The notes: generated by a model from the sequence alone, not told the origin. Shown: positions 1 through 31,563, numbered from the stretch's first letter. The stretch is DNA of 54,982 bases from Candidatus Omnitrophota bacterium (GCA_017994375.1 JAGOLA010000002.1:1-54982), one strand, 5' to 3'. Made by a program: numbers and translations.

Positions 1-3000
1 CATATTGGCCGTTTACTACTGCTCTTTGTAATTTACCCTCATCATTTGTCTCCATACGATAACCCATAACCGGATGTTTATCGAATAAATGCGGAGTAGA
101 AGCTTCTCGCCAATCAAAGTGGTTACGTGGATCTAGCCACTTCTCAATAGCTGAAATTCCCGGATCAAATACGGCTTTGGTAGCACCATAAGTAATAGCA
201 CCGGTCGAAGCAACATCTATAGCTAAAGGAGTTATAGTAGGAAGCTTTCTTAAACCATACCCTACTAAAGCACCAGTGCCAAAATAAGAAAGAGCATCCC
301 AGCCGTTATTAATATCCCCTCTTAAAGCTCCAATGCCTACCCCAGCAAGACCAGTACCAGTAGTATAGAAAGTTTTAAATTTAGCGGTGCTGGTAAATTC
401 AGAAACTTTATTTATCCAACCAGCTTCGCTAATGGAAGTACGCATTCTATGAGCAAAACTTAAACCGCCGATACCGGCTATGGCTAAACCGGCATTAGCA
501 ATATAATTTCCGGCTATATTAGCAATATCATTATCGGTAAAATTATCGACGCTCTTACCTATATAATACATTCCGCTTCCAGCACCGACCAAAGTAAGCG
601 GATGGTGGATAGCAAATTGAACTGGTCTGGTTTGTTCTAAACCTCTTATAAAAGCTGAATCGGAAATCTTTCCATAACCAGCACCAATAGCATTAAACAT
701 GGTTGATAAACCTATAGAAGAAGTAGCAAAAGTATCTAAACTATAGGCAGTGGTATAAGCTGATTGGCTAATAGCTTTAAATTGATCATCGCTGCCTAAG
801 GTTGGCATAATAAAACCAAGGCCAGTATTCCACTTCATAAAACTGGCTGCTCCTTGGTGAGCCTGGGCTGTAAAGTAACCTACGCGCTGTAAATTACTTA
901 ATGTAGAGTAAGGCATTGTACCACCCTCAAAGTAAGCTATACGAGTAGGTGAACCATTAAACATTACCTTCTCGCGAGATATGCTAATCGGAGCAACGGT
1001 TGTACTTCTTATGTTATCCCCTAGGTATTTAAATCCTGCTGTAGCACCCATTACGCCACCAACTAATCTACCCCACTGAGCTGGACCAGCCATACGGTTA
1101 GGATCATTTAACTGATTACCAAGTTGCTCTAGTTGTTTCTTAATTGAAGCTAAACTAAGAACTTCTTTAAAAGTTTCAATTGGTCTAGATAAGCCTAAGG
1201 CTGTATAGCTACCGCTGGCAGCTTGAGTAAAGGTATCTGTTGCAGATACTAGCATAGATGTTGGGAAGGCAGCTATAGGTGCGTAATCGTTCATAAATTT
1301 ATCAAACTTAACTCTTTCAGTATTACTTCTAATAGCTGAAATCTCTGGTAAATTATTATTGATACCGAACCATTTTTCAGCAATATTGCCAGCTGCCGAA
1401 ACTATATTTCGGCCGGGATTCATAAAGATACCGGTAATTCCACTGACCGGTCCAATAATTTCATGTAAAGGTTTAGATATCACACTACTGTTACCCGAAT
1501 AATTTAATTCGGTCTTAGCTAAAGCAGTAGAACCGGCTAAGAAATTTAAAGGCTGATTAAGACCAGTGATACTAATAAATCTTGTCGCTATTGGAGAATT
1601 ATTTATATTAAAAAATGGCCTAACTGGTTCAGCCACACGTTGCACTAAATCTTTGGTTCTAGTAATAAAAGTAGGAATTTTTTCTTGGGAAGCTACTACA
1701 GCAGAAGTACTTTTAGGTATTGCCCAGTTACCAACTCCGATAATACTACGAATAGCAAGTCCGCCCAAAGCACCATCAACATAATTCATGGGGCGGCTAT
1801 AACCACCATCTAAGAAATGAGGAGCGGCAATCGCGCCAATAGTAGGATAAGTTATCCAAGACCATCCTCTAGTCGGACTTAAAGCTGGTCCAATATACTT
1901 AAAAGTATTTCCAATTAATGGTATATCTCTACCGTATTGGATAAAACTTCTTGTAACTTGCCCTAAACCATTAAAAGCGCCAGTAAAAGCATAAGTAGTT
2001 CCGACATTAAATAAAGATTCGCCTAAATGCATTATTCGACCTTCAGTAGCAGCAGTACCGACATGCCCTAAAGCTAAATTAGCAGTTGCCAAACCTCTAG
2101 TAACAGGATTTTGAGGAATTGCTAAAGCACCAGCCCCAACTCTACTCCACCAACTTGTAGTTGTAGCTGCCGTATTAGCTAAACCAGTAGCACTACCAAG
2201 ATACCCAGCGATTTTTGCTCCAGCTGCTGGTAAAGCAAAAGACACACTAAGCACAGTAGATTCAGTAGGAGTTAAGTATTGTCCTGGAGTAACTAAATTT
2301 CCTCTAGCGTCATACCCGGCAGTTTGATAATACTTCAGTTCATCTGCAGCTAAACGAGTAACTCCAGCAACCGCAACTGTTGTCCGGCCTAAATTTATTC
2401 CTGTTACTTTACGAGTAGCGTATAACTCTAAAGCAACTTTACCTACTTGACCAGCTGACATTAATCCATACTCTAAACCGCTGCTCCATCTATTTCCTTC
2501 TCTCCACTCTTTTTTAGCATGTTCTTTAGAAAGACTAAAACCGATACCAAACTTCCAATCATTACCCATGAAAGCATAAGGTCTTCCCTTTTCATCTCTA
2601 ATTTCAAATTCCCAATCGCGCCAATCTGCAGAATTATTAGTATTCTTGATTCTTAAATCATCGCTAGCCCTCATTGCATTTAAAGCCCAAGCATTAGTAG
2701 TAGTTCTGTCCCAAGTAAATAATTCATTTAAATCTCCTGCAACGCTATTTGCAGCATATAACCACATGAAAGCTTCATGTGCTCCTGCTGATCTTCGCCA
2801 ACTATCACTATCAAATATAGCGCCGATAGCTGAGTCGACTCCCCACATTATGGCATGGACAGGGGTGCTTAAAGTATTACCTGCAAAATCATGTACTACC
2901 CATGATAATCCGTCGCCAACAACTCCGGCTACAGCGCCTCCAGTTTGACGTATTGGATGCCTTAGATGTTCGGGCACAGCAGCATGGAATATCGGGATAT

Positions 3001-6000
3001 CTGTTACCCGATAATCTGGAGTGGTACCAATCCAGTTATTCATATTCTGGAGGACATCTGACATAAAAGGATTACGTTGAATTTCAGGATTAGCCATTAA
3101 GCCAGCGATGGTTGTCGAGACTTTTTCTTTTTGTTCGTTATATTGAGCAGCTACACGTTTATATTCATCTCTTAATTGAGCTCTAGTCATTCCTAATTCA
3201 TTAATTGCTCTATCAGCATATTGCGGAGACATAAGTTGATTAGCAATAATATTCAAATTACGTTCCATTCTCTGCAATTGCACTTGGGTTTCAGCTACTT
3301 GTAAAACTGGAACTTTATTAGCCAGTCTTTGCAAAGCATCGACTTTTAAACCATCAGTATAAATAGCACCGGGTATACCCATAGAAGGTTGATCAGCTTT
3401 CGCAATTATCTGCTCTCTTTGTTCTAAGAATTTAACTGGGTCGTCAAAATTTAAAACTGCTTGAGCCTGATATAAAACTCTTAACTGGTTAGCAACTCTT
3501 AATTGCTCTTCACGAATGCTATCATCTCTATTATGAAGTATCCCTCGATACCAAGGCTGGCCGGCTAAATCACCATTAAGGTTTAATTCTCTAGACCAGC
3601 GTTGATTAAGATCAGCTAAACGTCTTTCTAAACCGCGTATCTCCTGCGGTAATCTTTCGGTACTATAACCCATTTCTCTTACCTTTTGAGCGTATTCGAC
3701 TCTAACTTGTGCAATTTGTTCTTGAAGTTGCCGAGGGGTCAAGACATCTTCGAATCTAATATTTTGCTGGGCAGTATTACCGATAGCATCGAATTTTATT
3801 ACATTGACTTTACTAAATTGTAAATGATAATTCGCAATATGTTCATTGTTATATTTAGGATTAGTTACCACTTTAAATACCTTATCTCCCGTAAAACCAT
3901 TGTTAGTAATTGCGTAATTTCTCAAATCCTGGGCAATGCTACCGGAGAAATTATAATTAAAACCCGAAATAAAATTAGAGGCTTTGCCGGAAAGTAAGCC
4001 GTCAGCGCCAAGAGTAATAGTAGTAAGGGCTCTTGTCGTAAAGGGGATATTCCTTGCAATTTGTTTATCAACTCCGGCCTCTTTATTCTGAGAACCTTGA
4101 TATTGAGAAGCTTGAACAAATAAGGGTTGTTTTCCTTCTGAAAGAGTAATGCTGATAGAATTACCCAGGCGCTCTAAGCCAATAACATTGCGCCATTGGC
4201 CAGGTTCGGTCATAAAGCGGGCATTATCAAATATTTGTTTTATATTGCCTTGGATATTACCTAGTTTATCCCAACGAATAGCATTGGCGAATTCACCCAC
4301 TGCTTTTTGGCCAACAGGATCTCTAAAAGTAACAGTAAAACGGTTGTTATCTAAAGGCGTTAAATAACCATTATGAGCGGTAATAAGCTGGCCAACGTTA
4401 TTAAAAATAATAGTTTCTTTATCTTGAATAGTTAAACCACCGTCAGCTAAAGACTTGCCAGCAGAAACTTGTCTAGTAAACCCTAGGTCTCCTTTAAAAC
4501 CTTGGCTGGTTATAGCATAGTTTCTTACATCCTGGGCAATGCTACCGGAGAAATTATAATTAAAACCCGAAATAAAATTAGAGGCTTTACCGGAAAGTAA
4601 GCCGTCAGCGCCAAGAGTTAAAGCTTGCATTGGACGAGCGGTAGCAAGATTATCTAAAGGTTGATAATAACCGGTTTTAACCTGATTAAAGAATTCTTCG
4701 TTAGTGGCTGCGGGAGGTTTAAGTAATTCTGATTGGATACTTTGTCTAAATAACGGCTGTTTTCCTTCTGAAAGAGTAACGCTGATAGAATTACCCATCC
4801 GCTCTAGACCAACAACATCTCGCCATTTCCCAGCTTCGGTCATAAAGCGGGCTGATTCAAATACCTTATTAATATCGCCGCTAACAGCACCTTGTTTATC
4901 CCAACGGATGGCATTAGCGAATTCACCAATGGCTTGTTGGTTAGCAGCATCTCTAAAAGCAATAGCAAATCTATTACCATCTATAGGTTGAATATAACCA
5001 GCATGAAGTTCAGTAGGTTGTCCTAAAGAATTAAAGTGAATAGTTTCATTATTAATAAAGGTCAAACCGCCACTAGCTAATAATTTAGAATTTCTATCTA
5101 CTTGAACGCTAAGAGCAGTATCGCCACTTATCTTAGAAACCACTGTTGCATTTCTAAAATCACCTGATAAAGAAGGCGAAGAACTTAAAGATGAAAATAG
5201 AAGATTAGTCTGTTGAATTCCATCGGCAAAAACAAATTCACCCTCTTTATGCAAAGTCAGAGTACGTGGGCCGATATTAATTGCGTTACCAAGAGAATCT
5301 ATATTAGAGTTGGTTTGGAATTCAGGAGCGAAAGCTCGATTTAAAACTAAAGGATTATCTCCGCTGAACTGGATAAAAGGAGTCTTACCGCTATCGGCAA
5401 TACCTTGTTTAGTGATATTAAGTTGTACTACTGGCTGATTAACTTTATCAAAAGGAGTAGCTAATCTAAAAGCACTATCAACCTTAAAAGAGTTATCTAT
5501 AAATTGTATTCCGCTATCAGTAGCTACACCCCAGAAATTGACTCCGTTTAATAGAACTCTATTCTCAACAATTTTACCAGTTACTGGATTCTGTATAAGA
5601 GATACGGAATCAGTATAGATATTATTCCAACCTGATACTACGCCCGGAGTACTTAACTTCTGAATAGCCCAACCTTCCATATTCAAAGCAACATGGCTTC
5701 CGGCTAAACTTTGTAGTTTGGAGTTATTGCCGCCAATTTGTTCCGGTCTAGCAGCAGCAATAACTTCCGAAGCAATATTCCTATTGCCATCAAAAGCTAC
5801 CGCAGCTACAAACTTATTCATATCTACAGTATTAAAACCGGTATTTGCAAAGTTATTCTGTGCACCTACGAATTGATGGTTAGCATTATGAAACATTGGT
5901 GAAAACGATAAGGCATCTTGGTTAAGCTGTTGCGGTCCGGTTATTTGAAGCGGTATAGAAGCAAAATGACTCTTATCAGTTAAGGCTGTAGAAATATAAG

Positions 6001-9000
6001 TACTGTTGGCTAATTGGGCGGTACTAAAATTGCCTCCACTGAAAGGATTGTTAATTCCGCCAACACCACCAGAAGTAACTGACTCGGAAGAAAAGATAGC
6101 TGTAGTCCCGCTATTGATTCCTATTTTAGAAAAATCAAAAGTTTGGGCATTAAAAGCTAAAGTTCTATTGTTAATTACCTGAACAACTTTTAGAGCTTGA
6201 GTTTCAGGGGTAAAGTTTTGGTTAAGTTCCCAAGGTTTTCCAAAAGTAGTACTATAGGTTAATCCCGGTAATTTTCCTGCCCCAAGATTATCTTGTTGGA
6301 TGGCTTCTAAATTAGTTTTAACTCCCAAAGGCGATAAATCTTGTAATTTAGTGGTTCTAAAGAAAAGCGGATCAGCGCCTTCTATAGCTAATGGCCCATT
6401 AACACCAATTTGCATTCCTGCACCCCAGAAAGAATTGTGTTCTCCATACATATGTATAGAGTTAGCTGGGCTAACATTTTGGCTAAACCTAGCTATTGCT
6501 CCTACTCCGAAATTATTACTGACTATGCCTTGATGTACATAATTATCCTGACTAACTACTTTAGCTAAATCTACGTTAGGTAAAACCCAAGATAATTGCC
6601 CTTCCAATCTTCCCGTATTAATATCATTAGTAGGACTTAAAGTATAATTGGCTTTCGAAAAATATAACTGGGGTATTGAAGAGGCCCCTTGATTACCACC
6701 GGCAGAAATAGGCCCCATACCAGGCAAAGCCTCCAGAGAAACGCCCTGACCTAAAATCTCTAAGGCCTGAGCACCTTGGAGAGTATGGGTAATACGGGCT
6801 TGGTCTATAATAGTGTTCTGGCCGCCGCTTTCGATTGCTCCTCTGGCACTGTGCAAACCTTGAAGAGGAGCATAAATATAACTTCCATTTTTAAGAGCAA
6901 TTAAACTGGTTTGAACAGTACCACTTACTGAATTTGGTTTTACTTCTGGACCAATATAAGGAAGTTCACCCGGCGCTAAATTGTAAGTTCCGGGTTGACC
7001 TAAAAGAATCATAGCAAGATGATTATTGGTAGGAACTGTATCTTGCCCGATAGCTCCTCCAAAGTGGAAAGTCCTATCTAAAAAGACATTTTGAGGATCT
7101 TTAACTTCGGCGCGGGAAGTCTGAACTCCTTCGTTATTTATATAGCTTTGTTGGACATAAGATATGGGGTTATTTTGAATATGATTGCGCCAAGCAACAG
7201 CTGTAGCAGCACTATCATTCCAATTGCTAAGAGTTCCGAATGATTTCTCGCTATATGAAGTAGGTAAACCGACAAAGCTATCTTTTAAATAACTCTTTTC
7301 AAAAGCAACTACAGCATCGCCTTCTTTGGCTTTACCAACTATAACTTCTTTTCCTTGCTTTTCATCCCAGACAGAAATTACGCCTACTCTAGCTAGCCAA
7401 TTCTGATTATCACTGATATATTGCGCTCTAGCTTTAGGATCTGCTATACCGCTCAAAGTTGTTTGAAAAGCAGCATAATCTTGTTGAGCTTTGCTATCTT
7501 TAAAAAACTTTTCATGCATCCAATCGTTAGTAGCAACACCAAGGGCTGTAGAGCCAAAATTAGCTCCGGGGTTTAAGACTGAAAGGCCGTCTTCAGAGCT
7601 AAACCAAGGCCTTTCTGCCCAACTTAATTCTTCGCCTCGGGCTTGTTTCGCAGCAGCCTCTCTATTATTTAAAGCACTACCGTTTATATAATCTAAGCCG
7701 GTACCAAGCACAACCCCTACCGCACCACCACTAGATTTTAAGCCCGTAGCTATTGTTCCAAATACATCTTTCCAGAGTTGGCCTTTATCATCCCAACGGC
7801 TTGAAGCTTGAGCCTCCGTAGAAGGAGCTGGGACAGCAGAAGCAGCAGTGGTTTGCGTTGTAATCGTTGGAGTAGAAGTAGAATTAGCTACGGTATTAGA
7901 AGATCTATCCATATAAGTAGTAGTGCCGGATGTAGCACTAGGATAAGCAACACCTGAAGAAGCAGCGCTTTTACCCATATTTTCAGACATATTACCAACA
8001 GCGCTATGGATTGAACGAGCAATGCCTCTGGCCTCTGTTCTATCGGTAACTAAGTGCGAAGGAAAAATACCATCTGCGGTTTCTTTTATAGCCTGGAATT
8101 TAGAGTTAGAAGAAGATTCGAATCTATTGCTCGAAGCATTCGCAGCTGTTGCCTGTGGCTGAGAAGCAGCAGGACTTGATGCTGACGGCTGATTAACATA
8201 TACTCCTGAAGGGCTACTACTAGCTGGCCTAGAAACATTACTCTCATACCAATTCTGGCTTACCGGTCCAAAAGCCCGGCCGTCATTAGTTACTCCACCA
8301 TTTTTTACATAGTTATCATAGCTACCTGGGCCAGGAGTGTTGTTTGAAAAACTCTGAGATTGCCCTGAAGCTGCTGTAACAGGAGCAGAATAATTAGTGT
8401 TACTATAATTCTTAGGTGCTGTCTGGGCCTGAGAAGCAGAGCTTACTGCTGGTGCTTGATTAACATAGATACCTGGCCCAGAAACCGTCTGAGAAACTTG
8501 GGCTGAAGCTACTGGTTGAGAATAATTATTAGTAGAAGGGCTCGGAGAGTAAGAAGACGATATATAGCCTACTGCAGTATCAGCGGCTTTAGATATTGCT
8601 CCACCGGTTGCCCTATCGACAGTGCTAACTACGGCACTAGTAGTAGGAAATACTACTGATAAAGTGGACTTCACTGCTCCCCAAGTAGAAGAGCTTTGGG
8701 AGTCAGTGTTACCGACCGAAGTCGGATACTGATTCGAAACTGCTGAAGTATTAGAAGAATAATTAGCGCCAGTATAATTCGAAGACGCTGCTGCTGGCTG
8801 AGAAGTAGGAGTTGATGCTGACGGCTGATTAACATATACCCCAGAATTAGGGTTGCTATAATAATTACTAGCTGGCCGAGAAACATTACTTTCATACCAA
8901 TTCTGGCTTACCGGTCCAAAAGCCTGACCGTCATTAGTTACTCCGCCATTTTTTACATAGTTATCATAGCTACCTGGGCCAGGAGTGTTATATTGTTGTA

Positions 9001-9508: not shown

Positions 9509-9590
9509 AAATTAAAATAAAATTATAAATATAAAAATGGCCCCTCTTCTTTTCTCCCCAAATTGTGCGTTGGCTTTTTCTATTCTCATA

Positions 9591-9635
9591 AAATAAAAAC
9601 CGGATTGCCTTCTCTTTTGAGATTCGGCAACCCGG
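9591..9635 (-). terminator. Intrinsic terminator forming the expression platform of the riboswitch at 9591-9735.
   Basis: On the RNA, CCGGGUUGCC (9635-9626) pairs with GGCAAUCCGG (9609-9600) over 10 bp including one G-U. A UUUUUAUUU tract follows (9599-9591). The 5' arm of the stem is also the 3' strand of the aptamer. Confidence 0.7.
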
Positions 9636-9735
9636 CTATCCGTTTAGATAAAACTAAGTTGTAGTAGAGCTTCCTAAATTAGGACCCGTGGCTTTGCGCC
9701 CTCCGCTTACGCTGGAGTTTGCCTTTATCGACCCC
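9591..9735 (-). promoter_or_regulatory. c-di-GMP-I (GEMM-I) riboswitch in the 5' leader of the giant ORF.
   Basis: The minus-strand RNA reads AAAGGCAAACUCCAGCGUAAGCGGAGGGCGCAAAGCCACGGGUCCUAA...CGGAUAGCCGGGUUGCCGA. This has the GEMM-I hallmarks: GGCAAAC, a hairpin capped by a GNRA loop (GUAA), the GCGCAAAGCC core, CCUAA, and the 3' AGCCGGGUUGCCGA segment (compare the Vibrio cholerae Vc2 aptamer). A terminator follows. Confidence 0.85.
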
Positions 9736-9760
9736 AATTCTTAGCTGCTAAACTACAGTA

Positions 9761-9789
9761 AATATAACATAATATAATATATAAGTCAA
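9761..9789 (-). promoter_or_regulatory. Sigma70-like promoter for the riboswitch and giant ORF transcript.
   Basis: On the minus strand, TTGACT (9789-9784) is followed by a 17-nt spacer and TATATT (9766-9761). This lies about 25 nt upstream of the aptamer. Confidence 0.55.
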
Positions 9790-9979
9790 GAAAACCTAAG
9801 AAAAATAAAAGCCTTTATGAAAACCTTTTCGGTATGTTAGAAGGTAGTCTTTAAGAAAAATCCCGGAGAGAAAATTTTTAGGAGATTTTGACTCTTTTAT
9901 TTAATATTTAGCAGCAAATTGTTTCTTAATGATGTTATATATGGACATTAATTTTCATAACTATCTGAAAATAAATATA

Positions 9980-10843
9980 TTACATACCTACTCCACTAAA
10001 CAAGTCTCCCTTTATAAATTTAATTAGAATCGGCCCGGCAACAATAATAAGAATTACTGGTAAGATGCAAAAGATAAGCGGAATAAGCATCTTAAGCGGT
10101 GCTTTCATAGCTTGGCGTTCTCCTCTATGAAAACGTCGCATCCGAGTATCCTCAGAAAGAATCTTAAAAGCCTCTTCCACTGGAGTTCCCATGCGATCAG
10201 CCTGAATTAAGGTCCTTACAAAAGAGGTAACATCTGGTATCTCTAATCTTTTAGACATATCTCTTAAAGCTTCGGTGCGGGATTTTCCGATATTTATCTC
10301 TTTTAAAACTACTGAGAGTTCTTCAATTAAAGGATTAAACCTAACTTTATCAATAACCCATCTTACCGCTGACATAAAATCTAACCCTGCTCCCACACAC
10401 AAACCTAATAAATCTACTGTCTCTGGCAATATCCTTACTATAGCATATTTTCTTCTATTGATAGCAGACTTCATCATAATACCGGGCAAGATAAGTCCAA
10501 AAATAGCAGCTGATATCAACCATATCGGCTTCTCTAAGCCAAAGACATATAGTAAAAGCGGAAAAACAATAGCGCATATCTCCCGCATTCCAAGAAATTC
10601 GGCCGGGGTTAATTTCCACCGAGATAATGTTAGTTTACTGCGTAAAGCATGTTCCAACTTAAGGATTTTTAATATTACCTTATTTAGAGGAGTAAAAACT
10701 TTTAATAAAGGCATAAGCAGAGGATTTTTATCTTCTTTGACTTTTTCTTTAAAAACCGAAATAGTATCCGGCTCTTTAGGAACTAAACCAACAAAGATAA
10801 AAATGAAGGCTGCAATCAAAAATAAATATAGAAGAATAATCAT
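9980..10843 (-). CDS. tadC: TadC-like pilus platform protein (T2SS-F/GspF-type domain).
   Basis: 287 aa, polytopic. The T2SSF-like core reads ...LPETVDLLGLCVGAGLDFMSAVRWV...RTEALRDMSKRLEIPDVTSFVRTLIQADRMGTPVEEAF... It overlaps the upstream tadB-like gene by 4 nt. Confidence 0.8.
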   Translation of the reverse strand: MIILLYLFLIAAFIFIFVGLVPKEPDTISVFKEKVKEDKNPLLMPLLKVFTPLNKVILKILKLEHALRSKLTLSRWKLTPAEFLGMREICAIVFPLLLYVFGLEKPIWLISAAIFGLILPGIMMKSAINRRKYAIVRILPETVDLLGLCVGAGLDFMSAVRWVIDKVRFNPLIEELSVVLKEINIGKSRTEALRDMSKRLEIPDVTSFVRTLIQADRMGTPVEEAFKILSEDTRMRRFHRGERQAMKAPLKMLIPLIFCILPVILIIVAGPILIKFIKGDLFSGVGM

Positions 10844-11682
10844 ATCTTGACTCTCCCAAATAAAATTATTAAGCCAATACCTACGGTCTGAAGAATTAAA
10901 GCTATTAAAAGCAATAATCTTCCCAATTCATCCTGCCACATAATATCGAAGTGAGCCGGGTCCATTTTACGAACGATAAAAAAGAATACTGGGCCGATAA
11001 GAGAAATAATAATGGCTTGTAGCCGAGTTTGTAAAGTCAAAGTGGCTACCAACTCTTTTAACTTAAGCCGGTCTCTGATAGTTTCTACTAAACGGGAAAA
11101 TACTTTAGTTAAATCTCCTCCGGTTTCTCGAGCCACCATTATAGCTGAAGTAACTAAGGTTACTTCTTCTGAGCCCATCCTTTTATCCAATCTTAGTAAA
11201 GCTTCTTCTAAAGTTACTCCCACCTTTATTTCTCTGCTTACTAACGAAATCTCTTGGCTTAAAGGAGCGCTGGTTTCTTCTACCACTACATCAAAAGCTT
11301 GTATTAAGGTTAACCCTCCTTTTAAACAGCTATTCATAATCATAAGGCCGTCTACTAACTGGTTAATGAACCTTTTCTTTCTTAGGTTCTCCATAAATTT
11401 TACTAATAGTAAGGGACAAAGTACTCCTACAATCAAAAATATAATTACCACCAATACCTTTCGGGTAAAGATATAAGATAAAGCACCTAACACCAAGGGC
11501 AATCCAATATAGAGAAGAATAAGAGTTTTTTTCTGGACAAAAATGAACATCTCTTCGAATTGAGAAGCAGTTCGCATAGCTTTTTTTTGCTGGCTTTCTT
11601 CCCATTTTTGAAGTAGAAAACCTATACCGTAATAAGAAATTACTACTAAGGAAAATAAAAGAAGTATGTAGGCTAGGATCAT
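10840..11682 (-). CDS. tadB: TadB-like pilus platform protein (T2SS-F/GspF-type domain).
   Basis: 280 aa. The core reads ...MNSCLKGGLTLIQAFDVVVEETSAPLSQEI...LEEALLRLDKRMGSEEVTLVTSAIMVARETGGDLTKVFSRL..., flanked by TM segments. Confidence 0.8.
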   Translation of the reverse strand: MILAYILLLFSLVVISYYGIGFLLQKWEESQQKKAMRTASQFEEMFIFVQKKTLILLYIGLPLVLGALSYIFTRKVLVVIIFLIVGVLCPLLLVKFMENLRKKRFINQLVDGLMIMNSCLKGGLTLIQAFDVVVEETSAPLSQEISLVSREIKVGVTLEEALLRLDKRMGSEEVTLVTSAIMVARETGGDLTKVFSRLVETIRDRLKLKELVATLTLQTRLQAIIISLIGPVFFFIVRKMDPAHFDIMWQDELGRLLLLIALILQTVGIGLIILFGRVKI

Positions 11683-11692
11683 TTAATGCTTA

Positions 11693-11860
11693 CTAGTTGG
11701 GGTCAAACTGTTCTTCTAAGCCAAAAGTATCGGCTGCTTTTTTATAACTTCCTTGAAGGCGCCTTTTGATATAACCGGACATCGCTAAGAAAACAGCAAT
11801 AATCACCACTATTAAAATAGCATAAACAAGGATTACTTGCGACTGTTTACTTGTTCGCAT
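11693..11860 (-). CDS. Small Flp-like pilin paralogue of 55 aa, not in the ORF track, with Val in place of the conserved Glu5.
   Basis: ATG at 11860 and TAG at 11693-11695. The translation is MRTSKQSQVILVYAILIVVIIAVFLAMSGYIKRRLQGSYKKAADTFGLEEQFDPN. It aligns with the ...KAQSTLEYALLITVVIAVLLSMQAYIKRGMQGKFKD... paralogues at 15772-16113 and elsewhere. It overlaps the end of the upstream gene by 14 nt. Confidence 0.55.
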   Translation of the reverse strand: MRTSKQSQVILVYAILIVVIIAVFLAMSGYIKRRLQGSYKKAADTFGLEEQFDPN

Positions 11861-12665
11861 GATAATAAATTCCGATTATAGTGTAAGTATCTTTTAATAA
11901 CTCTTTCTCCGCTTCGGACTTAATATCCTTCAAGTAATAAGAGCTAATAAAAATATAATAAGCCTGATTATTATTTTTAAAAACTAAATTTTTAGCATTG
12001 GCGAACGGGGTCTCTGCTATATTCTTACTCTGCTCACCAGAAATTTCCGGGCATACTGGACAAGCCGAACTGATATCTACAGTGTCAAAATTACTTTTTT
12101 GTTCCGATAGTTTCCAGCCTAAAGAAGGCATTCTCCTAAGATAAAAATCTTCTACCTGCTTCGGGTTTTCTTTGGTTTTATAGGCAAAATAATGTATTCC
12201 TTTAGTGAAAGAATTATAGGATATTAATTCAGCGCTGGAAGGGTAAGGTGGCTTAAAGCTTGGTTTTTTATCCGGAGTAAAACATCCTTCTGGAGGGCAA
12301 GCTTTATTATCATTGCCTTTGGTTAAATCTCCGGTAATAACTGAATAAGAAGTTTCTTTCTTATTTAGCGAAGGCATAAAATTTAAGCTTAACATCATCC
12401 CTTTCTTAAGGTAAGAGTTAGGGGAAGCTTTATCTATTGGTTGCCAACCTTGTTTTGATAATCTCTCTTTATAAAATTGGCTAATTTGGCTTTTAGAAGA
12501 GTTGGAAGTATAGTGATATATTACGGATTCTCTATCTACTTCGGCAAATTTTTTAATCTCTTTTTTAATCAATTTGGAGTTAGGATAATAAGGTAAATTA
12601 GCGACTTCCGCCAAGGCTTTAAAAGATACTAAACAAAAAATAACTAAAATAATTTTTTTAACCAT
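11847..12665 (-). CDS. Secreted protein of unknown function with an internal two-fold duplication.
   Basis: I moved the start from the track's 12782 to ATG 12665, giving MVKKIILVIFCLVSFKALAEV, a typical signal peptide. This also removes the overlap with the upstream gene. The halves resemble each other: YYPNSKLI...YHYTSNSSKSQISQFYKERLSKQGWQ against PYPSSAELI...FAYKTKENPKQVEDFYLRRMPSLGWK. Confidence 0.6.
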   Translation of the reverse strand: MVKKIILVIFCLVSFKALAEVANLPYYPNSKLIKKEIKKFAEVDRESVIYHYTSNSSKSQISQFYKERLSKQGWQPIDKASPNSYLKKGMMLSLNFMPSLNKKETSYSVITGDLTKGNDNKACPPEGCFTPDKKPSFKPPYPSSAELISYNSFTKGIHYFAYKTKENPKQVEDFYLRRMPSLGWKLSEQKSNFDTVDISSACPVCPEISGEQSKNIAETPFANAKNLVFKNNNQAYYIFISSYYLKDIKSEAEKELLKDTYTIIGIYYHANK

Positions 12666-12684
12666 TGTCTTTATTCTTATTACT

Positions 12685-14010
12685 TTACTTCCAAAAGTCA
12701 ACTTCAATAATCGCAGCATCGTGTTCCCAAATAGGCTCGCAACTATAACCGTCGTGACGGGAACAAATTTGTCCTCTATCATTATAATTAAAAGTAGCTC
12801 GAGTGGAACTTTTTATATTAGGATATTGGGTAAGCCAAAGCTCCGAAGAACGCTGGCCGACATTACCGGCATGAGACTGAACAGTCTTGGCTTCCACCTC
12901 TCTATCATGCACTATATCGTCAATCCAGGCAATAATAAGCTGTGGTTCATTATTGGCAGTATAAAGAGTGGTTGTGCTATCTTTGTCGATATCTAGGCCT
13001 ATCCAGGCTCTAGTACTCATATCATAAGCATTATCTATAGAACTTAAGGCTCTTTGAAGGTGCATTATTGCCATCTGACAATTCTGCTGCCAACAAACAC
13101 AGCAAGGCCACCAACCAGCTAAGCAGCATGGAACGCAACTACAAGCCGCGGCTAGATACCCTTGAGCGTGGCGTAAATTATCAATAGCATCTTCGGTAAA
13201 AAATATCACTCGCTCTAAAGTATCGGTTTCTTCCGGATAAGTCATATTAGTGTGACGAATCTTATACTCCCAGATAGGATCAATGCAAATTTGCCCCCAA
13301 ACTTCATGTCGCCGGCCGGAGTAATCATTCCAGATAAAATTCTCAAACTTGCAATTTTCTACTGTCGCAGTAGTGAAACTATCTACCTTACTATAAAGAT
13401 AATGCTTATCGCTATCTCTAATCTTTACTGCTATACCGCTGTTAAGAAAAAGAAACTTATATCCGGCAGCCAAAGCAGTATAGTATAAATCAAACTGGTT
13501 AGGTTGATCTCTATGGACGATATTTCTTACCCGGCGGTAAAAATCCTGCTGGTTAAAGAAAAAACTGGGCACTATCTGCCATTGAATTTGGCGGGTTTCG
13601 GCCCAAAAAAAACGCAATAGTCTATCGGCCTCAATAGCCCAATAAATAGCTTCGCAAGGGTTCGGACAAGCTAAATTAAGGGCACCTACGGTTTGGTGGC
13701 GGGCTAAAAATAAAATATTCCAAGAGTGCTGAAAATGCCTAAAAGCTTCCCAGTTGAAACGCCGGTAATTTATCTCAAATATGCGGTTAGCAAAAGCTAC
13801 GTAATTGAAAGCATAGGCTAAGGGCGAAGCAGCAGCTAAAGCTCCGCCGTCAGTAGCATTGCCACTGTAGGTCTTAGTTCCGGCGATCTTTCCGATATTT
13901 ACGCTGATTAAAGCTGCAATGAGGATAACTAGTATTAAAGCAAAGAAAAAAGGGGCAAGCTGTCCTTTATGAAATGAAGACTTATTAAAATAACTATTAT
14001 TTTTAAACAT
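12685..14010 (-). CDS. TadG-like pilus-associated protein with a pseudopilin-like hydrophobic N-terminus and a Cys/Trp-rich cluster.
   Basis: About 441 aa. The N-terminus ...KGQLAPFFFALILVILIAALISVNIGKIAG resembles the TadG/TadE-type N-terminal helix. The motif AACSCVPCCLAGWWPCCVCWQQNC is encoded at about 13075-13155. The track start at 14013 is GTG; the ATG lies at 14010. Confidence 0.5.
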   Translation of the reverse strand: MFKNNSYFNKSSFHKGQLAPFFFALILVILIAALISVNIGKIAGTKTYSGNATDGGALAAASPLAYAFNYVAFANRIFEINYRRFNWEAFRHFQHSWNILFLARHQTVGALNLACPNPCEAIYWAIEADRLLRFFWAETRQIQWQIVPSFFFNQQDFYRRVRNIVHRDQPNQFDLYYTALAAGYKFLFLNSGIAVKIRDSDKHYLYSKVDSFTTATVENCKFENFIWNDYSGRRHEVWGQICIDPIWEYKIRHTNMTYPEETDTLERVIFFTEDAIDNLRHAQGYLAAACSCVPCCLAGWWPCCVCWQQNCQMAIMHLQRALSSIDNAYDMSTRAWIGLDIDKDSTTTLYTANNEPQLIIAWIDDIVHDREVEAKTVQSHAGNVGQRSSELWLTQYPNIKSSTRATFNYNDRGQICSRHDGYSCEPIWEHDAAIIEVDFWK

Positions 14011-14032
14011 CACCCCTTTACCTTCAGGTTAA

Positions 14033-14278
14033 CTAAAAATGGGTCTCTTCTTTGGTAAGCTCTTCGGGTGCGTAAATTGGCCAGACTATATCTTTCCAGC
14101 CTCCTCCGCCAGGATACCTGTTAGGTTGACCAGCTTCCTCTCTAGTGCTGCCAAATAAAGGCTGACGCTTAGCAACCTGGCGATTACCCCAAGTCCACAT
14201 AGCTATTATACTAAAAAATAACGATAATACTACCAAAAAAGCAATAGTTATTTCTATAGTAGTTTGGGATTTCTGCAT
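14033..14278 (-). CDS. Small pseudopilin-like protein of 81 aa.
   Basis: The N-terminus MQKSQTTIEITIAFLVVLSLFFSIIAM has the same S/Q...E(+5) leader plus hydrophobic helix as the pilin array. Confidence 0.55.
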   Translation of the reverse strand: MQKSQTTIEITIAFLVVLSLFFSIIAMWTWGNRQVAKRQPLFGSTREEAGQPNRYPGGGGWKDIVWPIYAPEELTKEETHF

Positions 14279-14285
14279 TTTTATC

Positions 14286-14924
14286 TTATTTATTTACTGA
14301 AAAACTTCGGGCTTTGCCGCTAGAACGACTCTGCTCCACGGTAGTAGCTCCTTTTATATAATAAGTCATCTCTTCAGCTACGGCTGAACCTCTGGTGCTG
14401 CTTATATTAGCCGGATCTTCCGTTAAATTCAAGCTCTCGGAAACTGCCGTAGCATATTCTCGGTCTACTCCGGTAACATCGGCATCCGGATCTAACACTA
14501 CATCACCTTGATCGTTAATCTCATAGATAAATTTTCTTTCGGGATCATTTTCTTCATCGGTATATATATCCAAGGTGCCTCCGGTAGCTCCAAAACGCCA
14601 TTGATCAGTTGACTCTACCTTAGTATATTTAGTTATCAAAGGCACAGCCCAATGGACGTAGCCGGAAGCGCTACGCAGGATTTTTTCACCGCGTAACGGT
14701 ACCTCAACATCGGCTTTACGGCTATCATTTATCGAATCGTGGCTTAAGATGACGTTTCTGTCGTGAGATTTTTTAAGCGAGCGGCGAAAATTCTCCATTA
14801 AAGTATATTGCTCGCTATTCATTTTCTGAATAAAAGTAACCAAAAAGCCGAAAGCAATCAATATTACTACTCCAAAAAGACCGGCTTCTACCAATCCTTG
14901 GGCTCTTTTATGAATACTTCTCAT
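14286..14924 (-). CDS. TadE/TadF-like pseudopilin of 212 aa.
   Basis: The N-terminus MRSIHKRAQGLVEAGLFGVVILIAFGFLVTFI has Glu at +5 after the putative A/Q cleavage site, followed by a globular domain. Confidence 0.6.
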   Translation of the reverse strand: MRSIHKRAQGLVEAGLFGVVILIAFGFLVTFIQKMNSEQYTLMENFRRSLKKSHDRNVILSHDSINDSRKADVEVPLRGEKILRSASGYVHWAVPLITKYTKVESTDQWRFGATGGTLDIYTDEENDPERKFIYEINDQGDVVLDPDADVTGVDREYATAVSESLNLTEDPANISSTRGSAVAEEMTYYIKGATTVEQSRSSGKARSFSVNK

Positions 14925-14942
14925 TTTTTTACTAACCTTTGC

Positions 14943-15371
14943 TTAATTAACACTAACTAAATCCCACTGTAAATTCCACTCAATATACTGAGTATCAGGA
15001 TAAAGAATAGCTGGCGGTTTGACAGCATAATCTACTACATCCCTTACGCTTCCCGCTTCTGATCCTACCGGGATATCATAATTATACCAAGCATCATCAT
15101 CGGTAGTAATAGTTAAGGTATTGCCCCCTTCATTCTCGAACTTATCAGAAGCTAAAGTATCGATTTGCTTATGCTCTTTGACTCTACTTCCATCGGCATT
15201 GTTTCCGGCCATATTAGGATAATAGCCAATAAAAGCATCGGATAAATCCTTTACTTTGGCTTGGGTTCCCCGCCGAATAAAGGGTTGCATAGCTAGCATT
15301 ACACCAATAATTATAGCAATCACTACGCCATACTCTAGTATGGCGTTGGCTTTTCTATTAATACTTATCAC
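14943..15371 (-). CDS. Flp/pseudopilin-like protein of 142 aa.
   Basis: The N-terminus ...NRKANAILEYGVVIAIIIGVMLAM shows the EY motif plus a hydrophobic helix. The track start is GTG. Confidence 0.6.
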   Translation of the reverse strand: MISINRKANAILEYGVVIAIIIGVMLAMQPFIRRGTQAKVKDLSDAFIGYYPNMAGNNADGSRVKEHKQIDTLASDKFENEGGNTLTITTDDDAWYNYDIPVGSEAGSVRDVVDYAVKPPAILYPDTQYIEWNLQWDLVSVN

Positions 15372-15411
15372 CCCTTAGATTTTTAAGACCCTAACGCTAA
15401 ACTCTTAAATA

Positions 15412-15720
15412 CTACTCTCCAGAGAGATCGCCTATCATCATAATCTCACTATGAGTAGTTGCTCCGATATCCGCGCTATACTTATCTTTATCATAATATT
15501 CGGCAATTGCCATGCTGGAATTCTTGGCTACTCCTCTAAGTAAAGTATTATTATAAGAGTATTCTTCTCCTAACTGGTCAATATTCTGCTTAACTCCTCC
15601 CTGTATGCCTCTCTTTAAATAGGCCTGCATAGTAAGCAAGGCTGCTACTGTTACTACTATAATCAAAGCATACTCCAAAGTGTATTGAGCTTTTCTGTAA
15701 GTTAAGCCAGATTCTCTCAT
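15412..15720 (-). CDS. Flp-family pilin paralogue of 102 aa.
   Basis: The translation begins MRESGLTYRKAQYTLEYALIIVVTVAALLTMQAYLKRGIQGG. A Shine-Dalgarno-like GAGG lies upstream. Confidence 0.7.
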   Translation of the reverse strand: MRESGLTYRKAQYTLEYALIIVVTVAALLTMQAYLKRGIQGGVKQNIDQLGEEYSYNNTLLRGVAKNSSMAIAEYYDKDKYSADIGATTHSEIMMIGDLSGE

Positions 15721-15771
15721 AACTTAAACTACCTCTTCGAATACTTGCCTCTTATAACTTAACCTAGGTGT

Positions 15772-16113
15772 TTATTCCCACTCAAAATTAACTGGGAACG
15801 ACTCTTTGTGTAAAGGCTTAATATCTTGATCAGTAGTAGTATTCTGGTTACCCGAAGTTACTACATTTAATCTGGTATTATGCCCTTCATTATAAGTTTC
15901 AGTAGTGGTGCTAGTAGTATCGAGATGGTAAGTGCCTTGGGTTAACCCCGGTGAATACTGATCACCAATTTGATCAGTTACATCCTTAAATTTACCCTGC
16001 ATACCTCTCTTGATATAAGCCTGCATGCTAAGCAGCACTGCAATTACTACTGTTATAAGAAGCGCATACTCCAAAGTACTTTGCGCTTTTCTTGGTTTAA
16101 GTAACATCTTCAC
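15772..16113 (-). CDS. Flp-family pilin paralogue of 113 aa.
   Basis: The translation begins MKMLLKPRKAQSTLEYALLITVVIAVLLSMQAYIKRGMQGKF. An AAGGAGGTG Shine-Dalgarno sequence lies upstream. Confidence 0.7.
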   Translation of the reverse strand: MKMLLKPRKAQSTLEYALLITVVIAVLLSMQAYIKRGMQGKFKDVTDQIGDQYSPGLTQGTYHLDTTSTTTETYNEGHNTRLNVVTSGNQNTTTDQDIKPLHKESFPVNFEWE

Positions 16114-16144
16114 ACCTCCTTATAAAATTAGTTTCAACTCCTTC

Positions 16145-16489
16145 TTACTGGTTTACATTGGAATCAAAGCTGGTAGTAGAATCTGCTGTCTTAGTCCAAA
16201 AATCGGGCTGACCTTCGCTTTCTACAAAAATTTCACTAATGTCTTGGTTAGCTGTTTGATTCCGGTTTTTATAACCAGCTTGTGGTTCATATTGGAACCC
16301 TTGTCCTAAAGTTACTCCTTCCGGTGTAACTTGGCCTGATACCTGGCTTAAGGCAAAATTAGCATCATACATCTTAGCTTGGATTGCCCTTCTTACTTCA
16401 TGCTGCATACCCAAAGCCGCAGCTACTACTAAAGAGAGAAGTATGGCATATTCGGCTGTTGACTGTGCTTTTCTTAATTTTCTTAACAT
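16145..16489 (-). CDS. Flp-family pilin paralogue of 114 aa.
   Basis: The translation begins MLRKLRKAQSTAEYAILLSLVVAAALGMQHEVRRAIQAKM. An AGGAGGTG Shine-Dalgarno sequence lies upstream. Confidence 0.7.
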   Translation of the reverse strand: MLRKLRKAQSTAEYAILLSLVVAAALGMQHEVRRAIQAKMYDANFALSQVSGQVTPEGVTLGQGFQYEPQAGYKNRNQTANQDISEIFVESEGQPDFWTKTADSTTSFDSNVNQ

Positions 16490-16511
16490 CTTTTATCACC
16501 TCCTATCCTAA

Positions 16512-16709
16512 TTATTCACCAGTATAAAGCCCGCCTCCGGCCTTATCTAAAAACTGCATCGAATGAGCATCAATTACGTCGGCGCTGTCAGCAAACATGT
16601 TATCTACTGCTGGTCTTATAACCTCTCTAGCGGCAAAAATTATCGCGGCTACTATCGCGGCTAAAATAATTACGTACTCTAAGATGTTTTGAGATTTTTT
16701 CTTTAACAT
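16512..16709 (-). CDS. Flp-family pilin of 65 aa.
   Basis: The track start at 16718 is GTG. ATG at 16709 lies 9 nt downstream of an AGGAGG sequence and gives MLKKKSQNILEYVIILAAIVAAIIFAAREVIRPAVDNMF... Confidence 0.7.
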   Translation of the reverse strand: MLKKKSQNILEYVIILAAIVAAIIFAAREVIRPAVDNMFADSADVIDAHSMQFLDKAGGGLYTGE

Positions 16710-16732
16710 TCCAATCACCTCCTTTATCCTTT

Positions 16733-16876
16733 TTATTGCATATTTTCGTTTAGGTCCTGCCTTACATTCTCAACCCGGGCACTAACTGCTCTTTGAATAT
16801 ATTTAGCTATCCCAAGAATAGAAACTATTATCATTACTACTAGTATTGCATATTCAATTGTACTTTGGCTTTTCAT
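16733..16876 (-). CDS. Minimal Flp-type pilin of 47 aa, not in the ORF track.
   Basis: ATG at 16876 and TAA at 16733-16735. The translation is MKSQSTIEYAILVVMIIVSILGIAKYIQRAVSARVENVRQDLNENMQ. Confidence 0.7.
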   Translation of the reverse strand: MKSQSTIEYAILVVMIIVSILGIAKYIQRAVSARVENVRQDLNENMQ

Positions 16877-16880
16877 CTTC

Positions 16881-17045
16881 TTATAAACCTTTTTGAACTA
16901 TACTATCAACTACTCTAGCCGCGTTATTCATTCCTCCGGATACTGCTGCCCTTATCCTGAAAGCGCCTAAGATTATAGCACCTAAAATTGTCGCCAATAT
17001 TAGAACATACTCAATAATACTCTGAGACTTACCTTTGGCTATCAT
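16881..17045 (-). CDS. Minimal Flp-type pilin of 54 aa, not in the ORF track.
   Basis: ATG at 17045 and TAA at 16881-16883. The translation is MIAKGKSQSIIEYVLILATILGAIILGAFRIRAAVSGGMNNAARVVDSIVQKGL. Confidence 0.7.
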   Translation of the reverse strand: MIAKGKSQSIIEYVLILATILGAIILGAFRIRAAVSGGMNNAARVVDSIVQKGL

Positions 17046-17178
17046 TGAACTCCTTAGTTATTTCTACAAATCTTCCATCCATGGCATTTTTAATATAGTT
17101 AGTCATTACTACTATCGCGGCTGATATGGCTAAAACTAACATGGTATATTCGATTATACTTTGCGTTAATTTTCTCAT
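17029..17178 (-). CDS. Minimal Flp-type pilin of 49 aa, not in the ORF track.
   Basis: ATG at 17178 and TAA at 17029-17031. The translation is MRKLTQSIIEYTMLVLAISAAIVVMTNYIKNAMDGRFVEITKEFNDSQR. It overlaps the next pilin gene by 17 nt. Confidence 0.65.
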   Translation of the reverse strand: MRKLTQSIIEYTMLVLAISAAIVVMTNYIKNAMDGRFVEITKEFNDSQR

Positions 17179-17342
17179 TCTTCTCCTACAATCTTATCTC
17201 TGCACTTCTCAAAATGTTTAACAAAGCTATTGTACTTAACGCTAGAAAGAAAAGCTGCTCCGATAAAAGCCGATATTACTGCGGCGCTGATCAAAAAATA
17301 TTCCAAAGTAGATTGAGCTTTTCTTTTTTTACTTCTTAACAT
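17175..17342 (-). CDS. Minimal Flp-type pilin of 55 aa, the first gene of the operon, not in the ORF track.
   Basis: ATG at 17342 is preceded by GGAG. TGA at 17175-17177 overlaps the next ATG in an ATGA arrangement. The translation is MLRSKKRKAQSTLEYFLISAAVISAFIGAAFLSSVKYNSFVKHFEKCRDKIVGEE. Confidence 0.7.
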   Translation of the reverse strand: MLRSKKRKAQSTLEYFLISAAVISAFIGAAFLSSVKYNSFVKHFEKCRDKIVGEE

Positions 17343-17354
17343 CTTTTTCTCCAT

Positions 17355-17406
17355 AAAAAAACCGGGCTACCTTTTTATCTTTCCAAGAAGACCTTCGGTA
17401 GCCCGG
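17355..17406 (-). terminator. Intrinsic terminator forming the expression platform of the riboswitch at 17355-17508.
   Basis: CCGGGCUACC (17406-17397) pairs perfectly with GGUAGCCCGG (17371-17362) over 10 bp. Seven U residues follow (17361-17355). The first pilin ATG lies only about 12 nt downstream. Confidence 0.75.
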
Positions 17407-17508
17407 CTATCCTATAAATACGCTTAGGCACACTGAATCCCTAGTTAGGATCCGTAGCTTTGCGCCCCTTGACATCTTTAATGCCAAGGGTTGCCTTTTC
17501 GTCGTCTC
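17355..17508 (-). promoter_or_regulatory. c-di-GMP-I (GEMM-I) riboswitch in the 5' leader of the pilin/tad operon.
   Basis: The minus-strand RNA reads AAAAGGCAACCCUUGGCAUUAAAGAUGUCAAGGGGCGCAAAGCUACGGAUCCUAACUAGGGAUUCAGUGUGCCUAAGCGUAUUUAUAGGAUAGCCGGGCUACCGAAGG. It has the same conserved blocks as the copy at 9591-9735 and as GEMM-I in general, followed by a terminator. Confidence 0.85.
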
Positions 17509-17524
17509 CCCGATTTGCACTCTA

Positions 17525-17554
17525 AATATACCATAATTTATCTACCTGGGGCAA
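17525..17554 (-). promoter_or_regulatory. Candidate promoter with an extended -10 element for the riboswitch and pilin operon.
   Basis: On the minus strand, TTGCCC (17554-17549) is followed by an 18-nt spacer ending in TGG, then TATATT (17530-17525). The TGnTATATT arrangement is an extended -10. Confidence 0.4.
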
Positions 17555-26892: not shown

Positions 26893-26897
26893 AAAAA

Positions 26898-29066: not shown

Positions 29067-29069
29067 CGA

Positions 29070-30713: not shown

Positions 30714-30714
30714 C

Positions 30715-31551: not shown

Positions 31552-31563
31552 TTATTCAAGATT

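Follow-up and report, generated by a model that had tools for sequence, protein, structure and literature searches.

Organization of the locus

We describe a Tad-like pilus locus and an adjoining giant gene on a 54,982-base stretch of DNA (hereafter the window), which forms a complete contig in a metagenome-assembled genome that is labelled Candidatus Omnitrophica, together with two class-I cyclic di-GMP (c-di-GMP) riboswitches located in their leaders (Table 1). Nearly every gene of the window, including all those treated here, lies on the minus strand. In the direction of transcription, the first riboswitch (RS2) precedes an array of small pilin-like open reading frames (ORFs), a TadE/G-like gene, a gene for a conserved 311-aa protein (p311), and the platform genes tadB and tadC, while the second (RS1) lies between tadC and the 5′ part of a giant gene that runs off the contig end. 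Based on the aptamers, their terminators, and their conservation in relatives, we consider it highly likely that both leaders function as class-I c-di-GMP riboswitches that turn transcription ON, and that each heads a transcription unit of its own.

Table 1. Coordinates of the features discussed, in the window and, where a locus handle is given, in related loci.
Feature	Coordinates	Strand	Basis or remark
RS2, c-di-GMP-I aptamer, pilin side	17505-17394	-	RF01051, 46.1 bits vs gathering 35, E 6.6e-6
RS1, c-di-GMP-I aptamer, giant-gene side	9732-9622	-	RF03167, 62.8 bits vs 59, E 1.6e-12
RS2 intrinsic terminator	17355-17407	-	GCCGGGCUACC 17407-17397 pairs with GGUAGCCCGG 17371-17362, then U7 17361-17355
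RS1 intrinsic terminator	9588-9636	-	GCCGGGUUGCC 9636-9626 pairs with GGCAAUCCGG 9609-9600, then U5AUUUU 9599-9590
Promoter-like element, pilin leader	17525-17554	-	TTGCCC-18-TATATT, TG-extended -10
Promoter-like element, giant-gene leader	9761-9789	-	TTGACT-17-TATATT, TG-extended -10; 10/12 sigma-70 match
11 pilin-like ORFs, 47-212 aa	14033-17354	-	leader K/R-x-[AGS]-Q-x-x-x-E-Y plus hydrophobic helix
TadE/G-like protein, 442 aa	12685-14013	-	PF13400 Tad, 25.4 bits vs cut-off 22.3; syntenic in relatives
p311, 311-aa conserved protein, and 55-aa pilin-like ORF without Glu5	11693-12782	-	translations, domain scan
tadB, platform protein	11682-10840	-	PF00482 T2SSF (tadB/tadC E 1e-19 and 1.6e-17)
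tadC, platform protein	10843-9980	-	PF00482 T2SSF
Giant gene, 5′ part, 3,169 codons, off contig end	1-9508, ATG 9508	-	NCBI entry KBB01_00450
481-aa protein	17667-19112	-	outside the riboswitch-gated unit; conserved just upstream of the pilin-side riboswitch
About 7 unrelated genes	25729-19334	-	DUF134 regulator, ArsP permease, S-adenosylmethionine (SAM) methyltransferase, DsbD-like, SBF/Acr3-like transporter, ABC transporter
Ungated machinery block (PPIase to second T2SSE ATPase)	25831-32520	-	Pfam domains
Peptidyl-prolyl isomerase (PPIase)	32520-31564	-	first gene of the Tad-like machinery block
RcpC/CpaB	31551-30715	-	PF16976
Secretin with C-terminal TonB_C domain	30743-29070	-	PF00263 + PF13629
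TadZ-TadA fusion ATPase, 722 aa	29066-26898	-	PF00437
Second T2SSE ATPase	26892-25831	-	PF00437
A20 aptamers of related loci	L027:11133-11219, L027:12715-12895, L028:13589-13832, L044:7838-7944, L048:7900-8006, L055:2086-2193		A at the G20 position
Co-gated signal-peptide partner protein	L007:4524-5690, L014:6421-7521, L087-L094		one sub-lineage
Type B giant gene, examples	L064:13348-15747, L068:4152-6551, L077:11948-14347		FKSSFKxWIRVVAF anchor, then PF03412

Both leaders carry class-I c-di-GMP aptamers

A scan of the whole window with Rfam at gathering thresholds returned exactly two matches in 55 kb, RS2 and RS1, both on the minus strand. RS2 is recognized by RF01051; for RS1 the best member of clan CL00126 is RF03167 (c-di-GMP-I-GGC), the lower-scoring overlapping clan match being suppressed. 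For comparison with relatives, an alignment of 35 TadC sequences led to 80 other tadC loci in species-representative genomes, all of them Omnitrophota, some mislabelled Planctomycetia. A covariance model built from 13 aptamers out of these same loci (R1) found 76 matches in ~1 Mb and scores RS2 at 80.2 bits and RS1 at 85.8 bits. An earlier reading of the window, made from sequence only, had assigned the two leaders to one c-di-GMP class from shared sequence blocks and proposed a covariance-model check; the quoted blocks are present, and both leaders pass gathering thresholds within the c-di-GMP-I clan. Moreover, both aptamers read GAC at the positions equivalent to G20, A47, and C92 of Vc2, the nucleotides that contact the ligand (PMC11218506), as do 62 of the 76 homologues.

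Over these 76 sequences, covariation in helices P2 and P3, which stand around a three-way junction, is strong: 89% of cells are paired, with the P2/P3 helices 95-99% paired, and double-change cells number 179, compared with 50 ± 6 in shuffles and at most 32 when the partners are slid. Double changes occur in 15 of the 19 P2/P3 pairs and collapse in the slid controls. In RS1, the P2 loop GUAA is a GNRA tetraloop, the kind of loop that docks into a P3 receptor in the type 1 architecture. As a separate observation, six homologous aptamers of related loci (Table 1), and neither of those in the window, have A instead of G at the G20 position, giving the triple AAC. A change of G20 to A is associated with selectivity for 3′,3′-cyclic GMP-AMP (3′,3′-cGAMP) in the GEMM-Ib riboswitches of Geobacter.

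Terminators share a strand with the aptamers, and promoter-like sites precede them

In both leaders, an intrinsic terminator is built from the 3′ strand of the aptamer, as the sequence-only reading had noticed. The 5′ arm of the RS2 terminator (GCCGGGCUACC) is the 3′ strand of P3/P1, and that of the RS1 terminator (GCCGGGUUGCC) is likewise the 3′ strand of its aptamer, a pairing that can be read directly in the sequence. The minimum free energy fold of the full leader contains the terminator, and not P3/P1, in both cases (-68.1 kcal/mol for RS2 and -48.6 kcal/mol for RS1). A strict test, which demands at least 7 perfect pairs starting in the last 24 nt of the aptamer and then a T-rich tail, was passed by 55 of 72 homologues, compared with 14 of 1,460 random positions, and folding indicates that the homologues failing it mostly have the same stem with a bulge. 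Neither riboswitch terminator was picked up by a generic scan, since both have loops longer than 8 nt; they were confirmed by folding and by the custom test. Since the shared strand makes ligand binding and termination mutually exclusive, the predicted polarity is ON.

Each leader also has a sigma-70-like site that ends 20-26 nt ahead of the aptamer. Taken alone, these promoter matches are not above chance in this AT-rich region (42 sites vs 29 ± 5 expected). Among relatives, a site of this kind lies ahead of 62 of 73 homologous aptamers, compared with 16.3 ± 3.6 at GC-matched random positions, and ends 0-70 nt (mode 13-28 nt) before them, a conserved placement that supports the earlier suggestion of a separate promoter-like element for each leader. 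The scan detected no terminator-like hairpin on the minus strand from the tadC stop (9980) to RS1, and therefore read-through transcripts would meet the second switch.

Both riboswitch positions are conserved across Omnitrophota

TadC is 60-86% identical across Omnitrophota, and 73 of the 76 R1 matches lie on the tadC strand. A switch is present downstream of tadC in 23 of the 25 loci with at least 9 kb of downstream coverage and upstream of tadC, ahead of the pilins, in 23 of the 37 loci with at least 9 kb of upstream coverage. Thus, in the survey of relatives that the sequence-only reading had suggested, the downstream switch held up and the pilin-side switch did so only in part. Among the 22 loci covered on both sides, 12 have both switches, 7 only the downstream one, 1 only the upstream one, and 2 none. 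Searching L004, L043, L064, L080, and L069, five loci in which one or both switches are missing, with filters off revealed no additional switch, which makes these absences real at this sensitivity. Several pilin-side homologues score 18-35 bits with R1 and are missed by Rfam; such weak pilin-side matches were accepted on position, strand, terminator, and conservation of the core motif rather than on Rfam.

Behind the upstream switch, at least 25 of 29 first ORFs are pilin-like, and the conserved gene order is PPIase, RcpC, secretin, TadZA, 481-aa protein, riboswitch, pilins, p212, TadG, p311, TadB, TadC, riboswitch, giant gene. In a second order, TadZA, riboswitch, pilin, TadB, TadC, p212, TadG, p311, riboswitch, giant gene, the switches again precede the first pilin and the giant gene despite the rearrangement. 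At the starts of giant-type genes, located by tblastn (n=32), a switch ends at most 600 nt upstream in 27 cases and lies one ORF further up in 4 more, with none in the remaining one, so that 31 of 32 are in a riboswitch-headed unit. We obtained a similar result with an independent sample ascertained without tadC, in which the conserved N-terminus of type-A giant proteins was searched against JGI metagenome contigs: a same-strand upstream switch is present in 14 of 15 loci, and the fifteenth has only 1.4 kb of upstream sequence.

For 72 of 74 aptamers (~38 by chance), the closest aptamer in another locus shares their positional class, and RS1 and RS2 differ at 35% of core columns. Both observations argue that the two positions are old and separately inherited, and not the product of a recent duplication. 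That the arrangement is a dedicated regulon rather than a chance neighbourhood, as first proposed from the window, is therefore well supported: both positions are conserved over ~80 species, survive rearrangement, and are occupied by positional orthologues.

Related loci also show variations on this layout. In L008, two tandem aptamer-plus-terminator units (14800-14909 and 14956-15066), 47 nt apart, stand before a type-A giant gene, and a series of separately gated units follows tadC in L027 (two units) and L028 (three). A few good aptamer matches, such as L015:13895-13987 (-) and L085:1096-1283 (-), with 41 and 62 bits, lie on the strand opposite to that of tadC or the giant gene and therefore would control divergently oriented genes. 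One sub-lineage has a gene for a signal-peptide protein of ~370-390 aa between the switch and the giant gene, whose start lies 1.15-1.45 kb from the switch (Table 1). A conserved N-terminal signal, GGKGE/WGKGG, that appeared after many switches was rejected as an artefact, because the ORF calls in question had begun at alternative in-frame starts further upstream and so ran through the purine-rich leader; by tblastn, the 'GGKGE' ORFs of L042, L048, L054, L055, and L057 are ordinary type-B giant genes that start further down.

Gene content of the gated units

The eleven leader-bearing small ORFs of the first unit, together with the TadG-like 442-aa ORF and the 55-aa variant, agree with the estimate of about 12 pilins made from the sequence earlier. 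For the first of them, an ATG at 17342 preceded by GGAG is a likelier start than the ORF call at 17354, which overlaps the U-tract, and it is also the start called on the ENA contig. The small ORFs match no Pfam or NCBIfam family at threshold; below threshold, the pilin-like ORFs reach E 0.014-0.44 with PF04021 (Class_IIIsignal) and at best E 0.27 with PF04964 (Flp_Fap). We therefore do not assert that they are Flp pilins, a family recognized by PF04964 together with a G/xxxxEY processing motif, a combination that the window ORFs do not show. Their leaders, [AGS]-Q-x-x-x-E-Y, resemble archaeal class III signals (QxSxExxxL), and they are called pilin-like by motif and context only. The core set of a Tad/Flp (type IVc) system is present in the window, namely a TadA/CpaF-type ATPase, TadB and TadC, an RcpA/CpaC secretin, and RcpC/CpaB, and p311 is syntenic in many Omnitrophota loci. 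No prepilin peptidase (TadV/CpaA) was seen among the ORFs scanned, which comprise part of the small ORFs of the window.

The giant gene continues beyond the window. The same ORF encodes at least 14,907 aa on a longer public contig from JGI (L001, Ga0246689_000080) and at least 14,697 aa on one from ENA (L002), both of which carry an identical tadC; it reaches the contig end in both, which makes the gene at least 44.7 kb long. The genome is present in the samples ENA ERR1025324/ERZ925383 and JGI 3300038949. Its product begins with a transmembrane signal-anchor, FKPWMRVIAFIVLFCFVYQD, followed by a low-complexity region rich in S, N, and Y. Two internal repeats of ~300 residues lie at residues ~1480-2130 (window ~3100-5060), with the consensus GGLT(F/I)...FANAIRWDK...GLER(M/L)GNSIS(V/I)TLSEGKQPLF...GADGLLSGKASNFISGFNYNFSGSIAQD. 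The 3,169 residues encoded within the window, repeats included, contain no Pfam domain; neither 'archaeovorin' domains (HEAT repeats, GGDEF, and others) nor Dockerin-type content is seen in this part, and some 11,700 or more residues lie beyond it. A HMMER scan of residues 601-1800 against 1.84 G representatives identified 35 distant, mostly fragmentary homologues; short metagenome ORFs of 135-270 aa match the repeat region. A word-indexed protein search with the whole 3,169-aa query returned only the protein itself, the low-complexity N-terminus having probably saturated the 8,000 candidates. The gene has the features by which Omnitrophota giant genes are recognized (West-Roberts et al. 2023): a length of at least 25 kb, a membrane anchor in the form of an N-terminal transmembrane segment, and a Tad locus resembling a type II secretion system ahead of it. 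In 19 loci, the giant gene is of another kind ('type B'), with a conserved FKSSFKxWIRVVAF anchor and then a Peptidase_C39 domain (PF03412, 26-35 bits vs cut-off 22). The type-A giant of the window shares with type B only the anchor motif, which is followed by its S/N/Y-rich low complexity.

The machinery outside the riboswitch-gated units

Upstream of the block that runs from PPIase to the second T2SSE ATPase, neither Rfam at gathering threshold nor R1 found a match. Two of its genes are unusual fusions, a secretin with a C-terminal TonB_C domain and a TadA ATPase with an N-terminal ParA/TadZ-like domain. The Tad-like locus of the window is split by about seven unrelated genes. In relatives such as L022, L038, and L050, the TadZ-TadA gene directly adjoins the 481-aa gene, so the intervening block looks like an insertion; it is possibly related to arsenic or metals. 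The 481-aa protein has no Pfam match even at E<=5, and its N-terminus appears helix-turn-helix-like by eye. By synteny mapping, its gene directly precedes the promoter of the pilin-side riboswitch in 15 or more further Omnitrophota loci, among them L009, L012, L021, L022, L026-28, L031, L033, L038, L041, L050, and L078. This protein may be an unrecognized component or regulator of the Tad-like system.

Discussion

Aptamer identity, terminator geometry, and the phylum-wide conservation of both positions are established by computation, while ligand binding, the ON direction in vivo, the operon boundaries, and the biological trigger are our inference. In the absence of ligand, the nascent leader would fold into the intrinsic terminator and RNA polymerase would halt ~110-150 nt after the start. 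With c-di-GMP bound, the 3′ strand of P3/P1 would be held in the aptamer, the terminator would be blocked, and transcription would go on. The first unit would then read into the pilin array, the TadG-like gene, and tadB/tadC, and the second, independently, into the giant gene, which spans at least 44.7 kb and encodes a membrane-anchored surface protein. Any transcript of the first unit that gets through its own switch and extends past tadC would encounter the second switch as a further checkpoint. The sequence-only reading held that one messenger licenses both the filament and the giant protein. The in-silico part of this idea stands, given two class-I ON designs, and it does not extend to the secretin, RcpC, and ATPase genes, which lie outside the gated units. 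Since these are ungated, high c-di-GMP would feed subunits, platform, and giant protein to a separately expressed machine. The trigger is presumably contact with a surface or a host cell.

Several points weigh against this interpretation. In 14 of the 37 covered relatives, about a third, no pilin-side switch turned up within 10 kb, and L004 and L043 have no switch at all even with filters off; the two-switch layout is common, not obligatory. At the Rfam gathering threshold, only 3 of ~14 R1 matches in eight loci were confirmed. Rfam recognizes the strongest homologues only, so many pilin-side matches depend on R1. Within the aptamers, P1 is poorly supported (47% of cells paired over the 76 sequences), RS2 has a longer P2 than RS1 and a non-GNRA loop, and in both window aptamers G replaces the usual A in the GAC bulge 3′ of P2. 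Ligand binding, specificity, and read-through of these RNAs are predictions, and the continuity of the first operon from 17342 to 9980 is read from gene spacing only. Finally, the 55-kb window contains no GGDEF, EAL, HD-GYP, or PilZ gene, and that the source organism produces c-di-GMP is an assumption taken from phylum-level literature.

It is also conceivable, if rather improbable, that the locus is one long operon in which the second riboswitch lacks a separate promoter and acts only as an internal attenuator on transcripts from the pilin promoter. The stretch between tadC and RS1 without a terminator-like hairpin would fit such an arrangement, as would a promoter match that by itself is not above chance in AT-rich DNA. 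However, the site ahead of RS1 matches sigma-70 at 10 of 12 positions, has an extended -10, and ends 26 nt before the aptamer, and equivalents stand at 62 of 73 homologues where ~16 would be expected. In addition, 7 of the 22 fully covered relatives have only the downstream switch, which must therefore be able to work alone. The two arrangements are partly compatible, as read-through in addition to an own promoter is possible.

We regard it as quite unlikely that the switches bind c-di-GMP with OFF polarity, or that their effect is on translation or RNA stability and not on termination. Both polarities occur among natural class-I switches, Vc2 being described as an off-switch (bioRxiv 10.1101/617340), and the U-tract of RS2 abuts the ribosome-binding site and start codon, which makes translational effects conceivable. 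Against this, the 5′ arm of the terminator is the 3′ strand of the aptamer in both leaders and in most homologues, the U-tracts directly follow the stems, and the same design has been demonstrated experimentally for Bc2 (PMC4933901).

A still less probable alternative is that RS1 belongs to a specificity variant, RF03167, that senses another ligand, such that the two units answer to different signals. RF03167 and not RF01051 is indeed the best Rfam match of RS1, and the aptamers of L070 and L055 are likewise called RF03167. However, the consensus sequences of the two families have a single core difference, at the nucleotide that follows the GC closing P2 (GCGAAg in RF03167, GCAAAg in RF01051), where RS1 reads GCGCAAAGCC and the cmscan alignment shows a mismatch to RF03167 at the G of GCGAAg. 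The GGC of the variant name, as Weinberg and colleagues are said to have used it in 2017, denotes positions 20/47/92; position 47 of RS1 is A and its triple is GAC. Because the variant-defining G is absent and A47 is kept, RS1 is no member of this variant, and we rejected the GGC identity; the modelled P1 stem, together with lineage similarity, plausibly accounts for its higher score with RF03167. It is scarcely credible that the matches are non-functional GEMM-like sequences, either decaying or arisen by chance: some pilin-side homologues do score low, escape Rfam, or have changes at contact positions, but both window aptamers pass curated Rfam thresholds, the helices show compensatory covariation, and position and strand are conserved over ~80 species along with terminators and promoters.

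Two separately promoted class-I ON switches thus remain our preferred interpretation, and they have parallels in known systems. In Bacillus thuringiensis, the class-I riboswitch Bc2 lies upstream of cap, which encodes a collagen adhesin; termination is the default, and c-di-GMP promotes an anti-terminator that turns expression ON (PMC4933901). The shared features are a class-I aptamer in the 5′ leader, a large surface adhesin gene behind it, and an ON switch design. Bc2 is an experimentally validated switch of a Gram-positive bacterium that governs a single gene for a sortase-anchored adhesin of ordinary size, whereas the Omnitrophota pair is predicted from sequence, has a target of at least 44.7 kb, and joins this target to a second switch on the adjoining pilus operon. 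In Clostridioides difficile, several c-di-GMP riboswitches control pili and adhesins (PMC6200980), with Bordeleau et al. 2015 cited for type IV pili. Here the parallel is one messenger that acts on pilin genes and surface or adhesion factors through multiple separate riboswitches. The pilA1 switch of C. difficile is of class II and the riboswitch targets of this species are scattered round the genome, while the two Omnitrophota switches both belong to class I and lie next to each other, on either side of one Tad-like locus. Moreover, the Omnitrophota pilus is of the Tad/Flp type with archaeal-style class III signal peptides, in contrast to the type IVa pilus of C. difficile.

The locus itself is the one already described ahead of giant genes, with PPIase, rcpC, a gspD-like secretin, gspE/gspF homologues, and small class-III-signal genes (West-Roberts et al. 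2023, bioRxiv 10.1101/2023.11.21.568195; Seymour et al. 2023, PMC10066038). These descriptions cover proteins only, to which we add the RNA switches, the ON design that they share, and their two conserved positions. West-Roberts et al. 2023 also report that most giant genes are followed by pilZ and that many encode GGDEF domains, both of which point to c-di-GMP. The word 'riboswitch' occurs zero times in West-Roberts et al. 2023, in Seymour et al. 2023, and in a 2026 Omnitrophota preprint, and full-text literature searches on riboswitches in Omnitrophota or Velamenicoccus returned nothing relevant. The novelty first suspected from the window therefore holds for the targets and the phylum, whereas the riboswitch class, the ON logic, and the control of pili and adhesins by multiple riboswitches were already known. 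We have described a phylum-wide regulatory feature of a much-discussed class of giant genes, apparently unreported, and not a new mechanism.

Omnitrophota giant genes are among the longest known, and earlier studies of them relied on neighbouring genes and on the domains of the proteins. The conserved ON switch for c-di-GMP ahead of them provides a first concrete handle on when these genes are expressed and names a specific signal that can be tested. For organisms beyond culture, an RNA of ~170 nt offers a simple in-vitro assay, and the switch can serve as a sequence marker for the 5′ ends of giant genes and for co-regulated partners in fragmented metagenomes. Tying the supply of the filament and of the giant protein to one messenger fits a giant protein that works with the Tad-like machine, and it also fits the ~3-fold higher level of giant-protein peptides in attached Velamenicoccus cells that is relayed in PMC10066038. 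For riboswitch biology, the leaders would be a clean example of the early abort of a very expensive transcript. It is tempting, if doubtful at present, to hypothesize that c-di-GMP is a master licence for the apparatus with which Omnitrophota attach and prey, in which the leader riboswitch would be a near-universal hallmark of giant genes, GGDEF and pilZ functions would provide positive feedback after contact, and the A20 aptamers may have been retuned to 3′,3′-cGAMP. If so, transcripts of more than 45 kb would be stopped ~150 nt in unless the signal is present, and contact would commit the cell.

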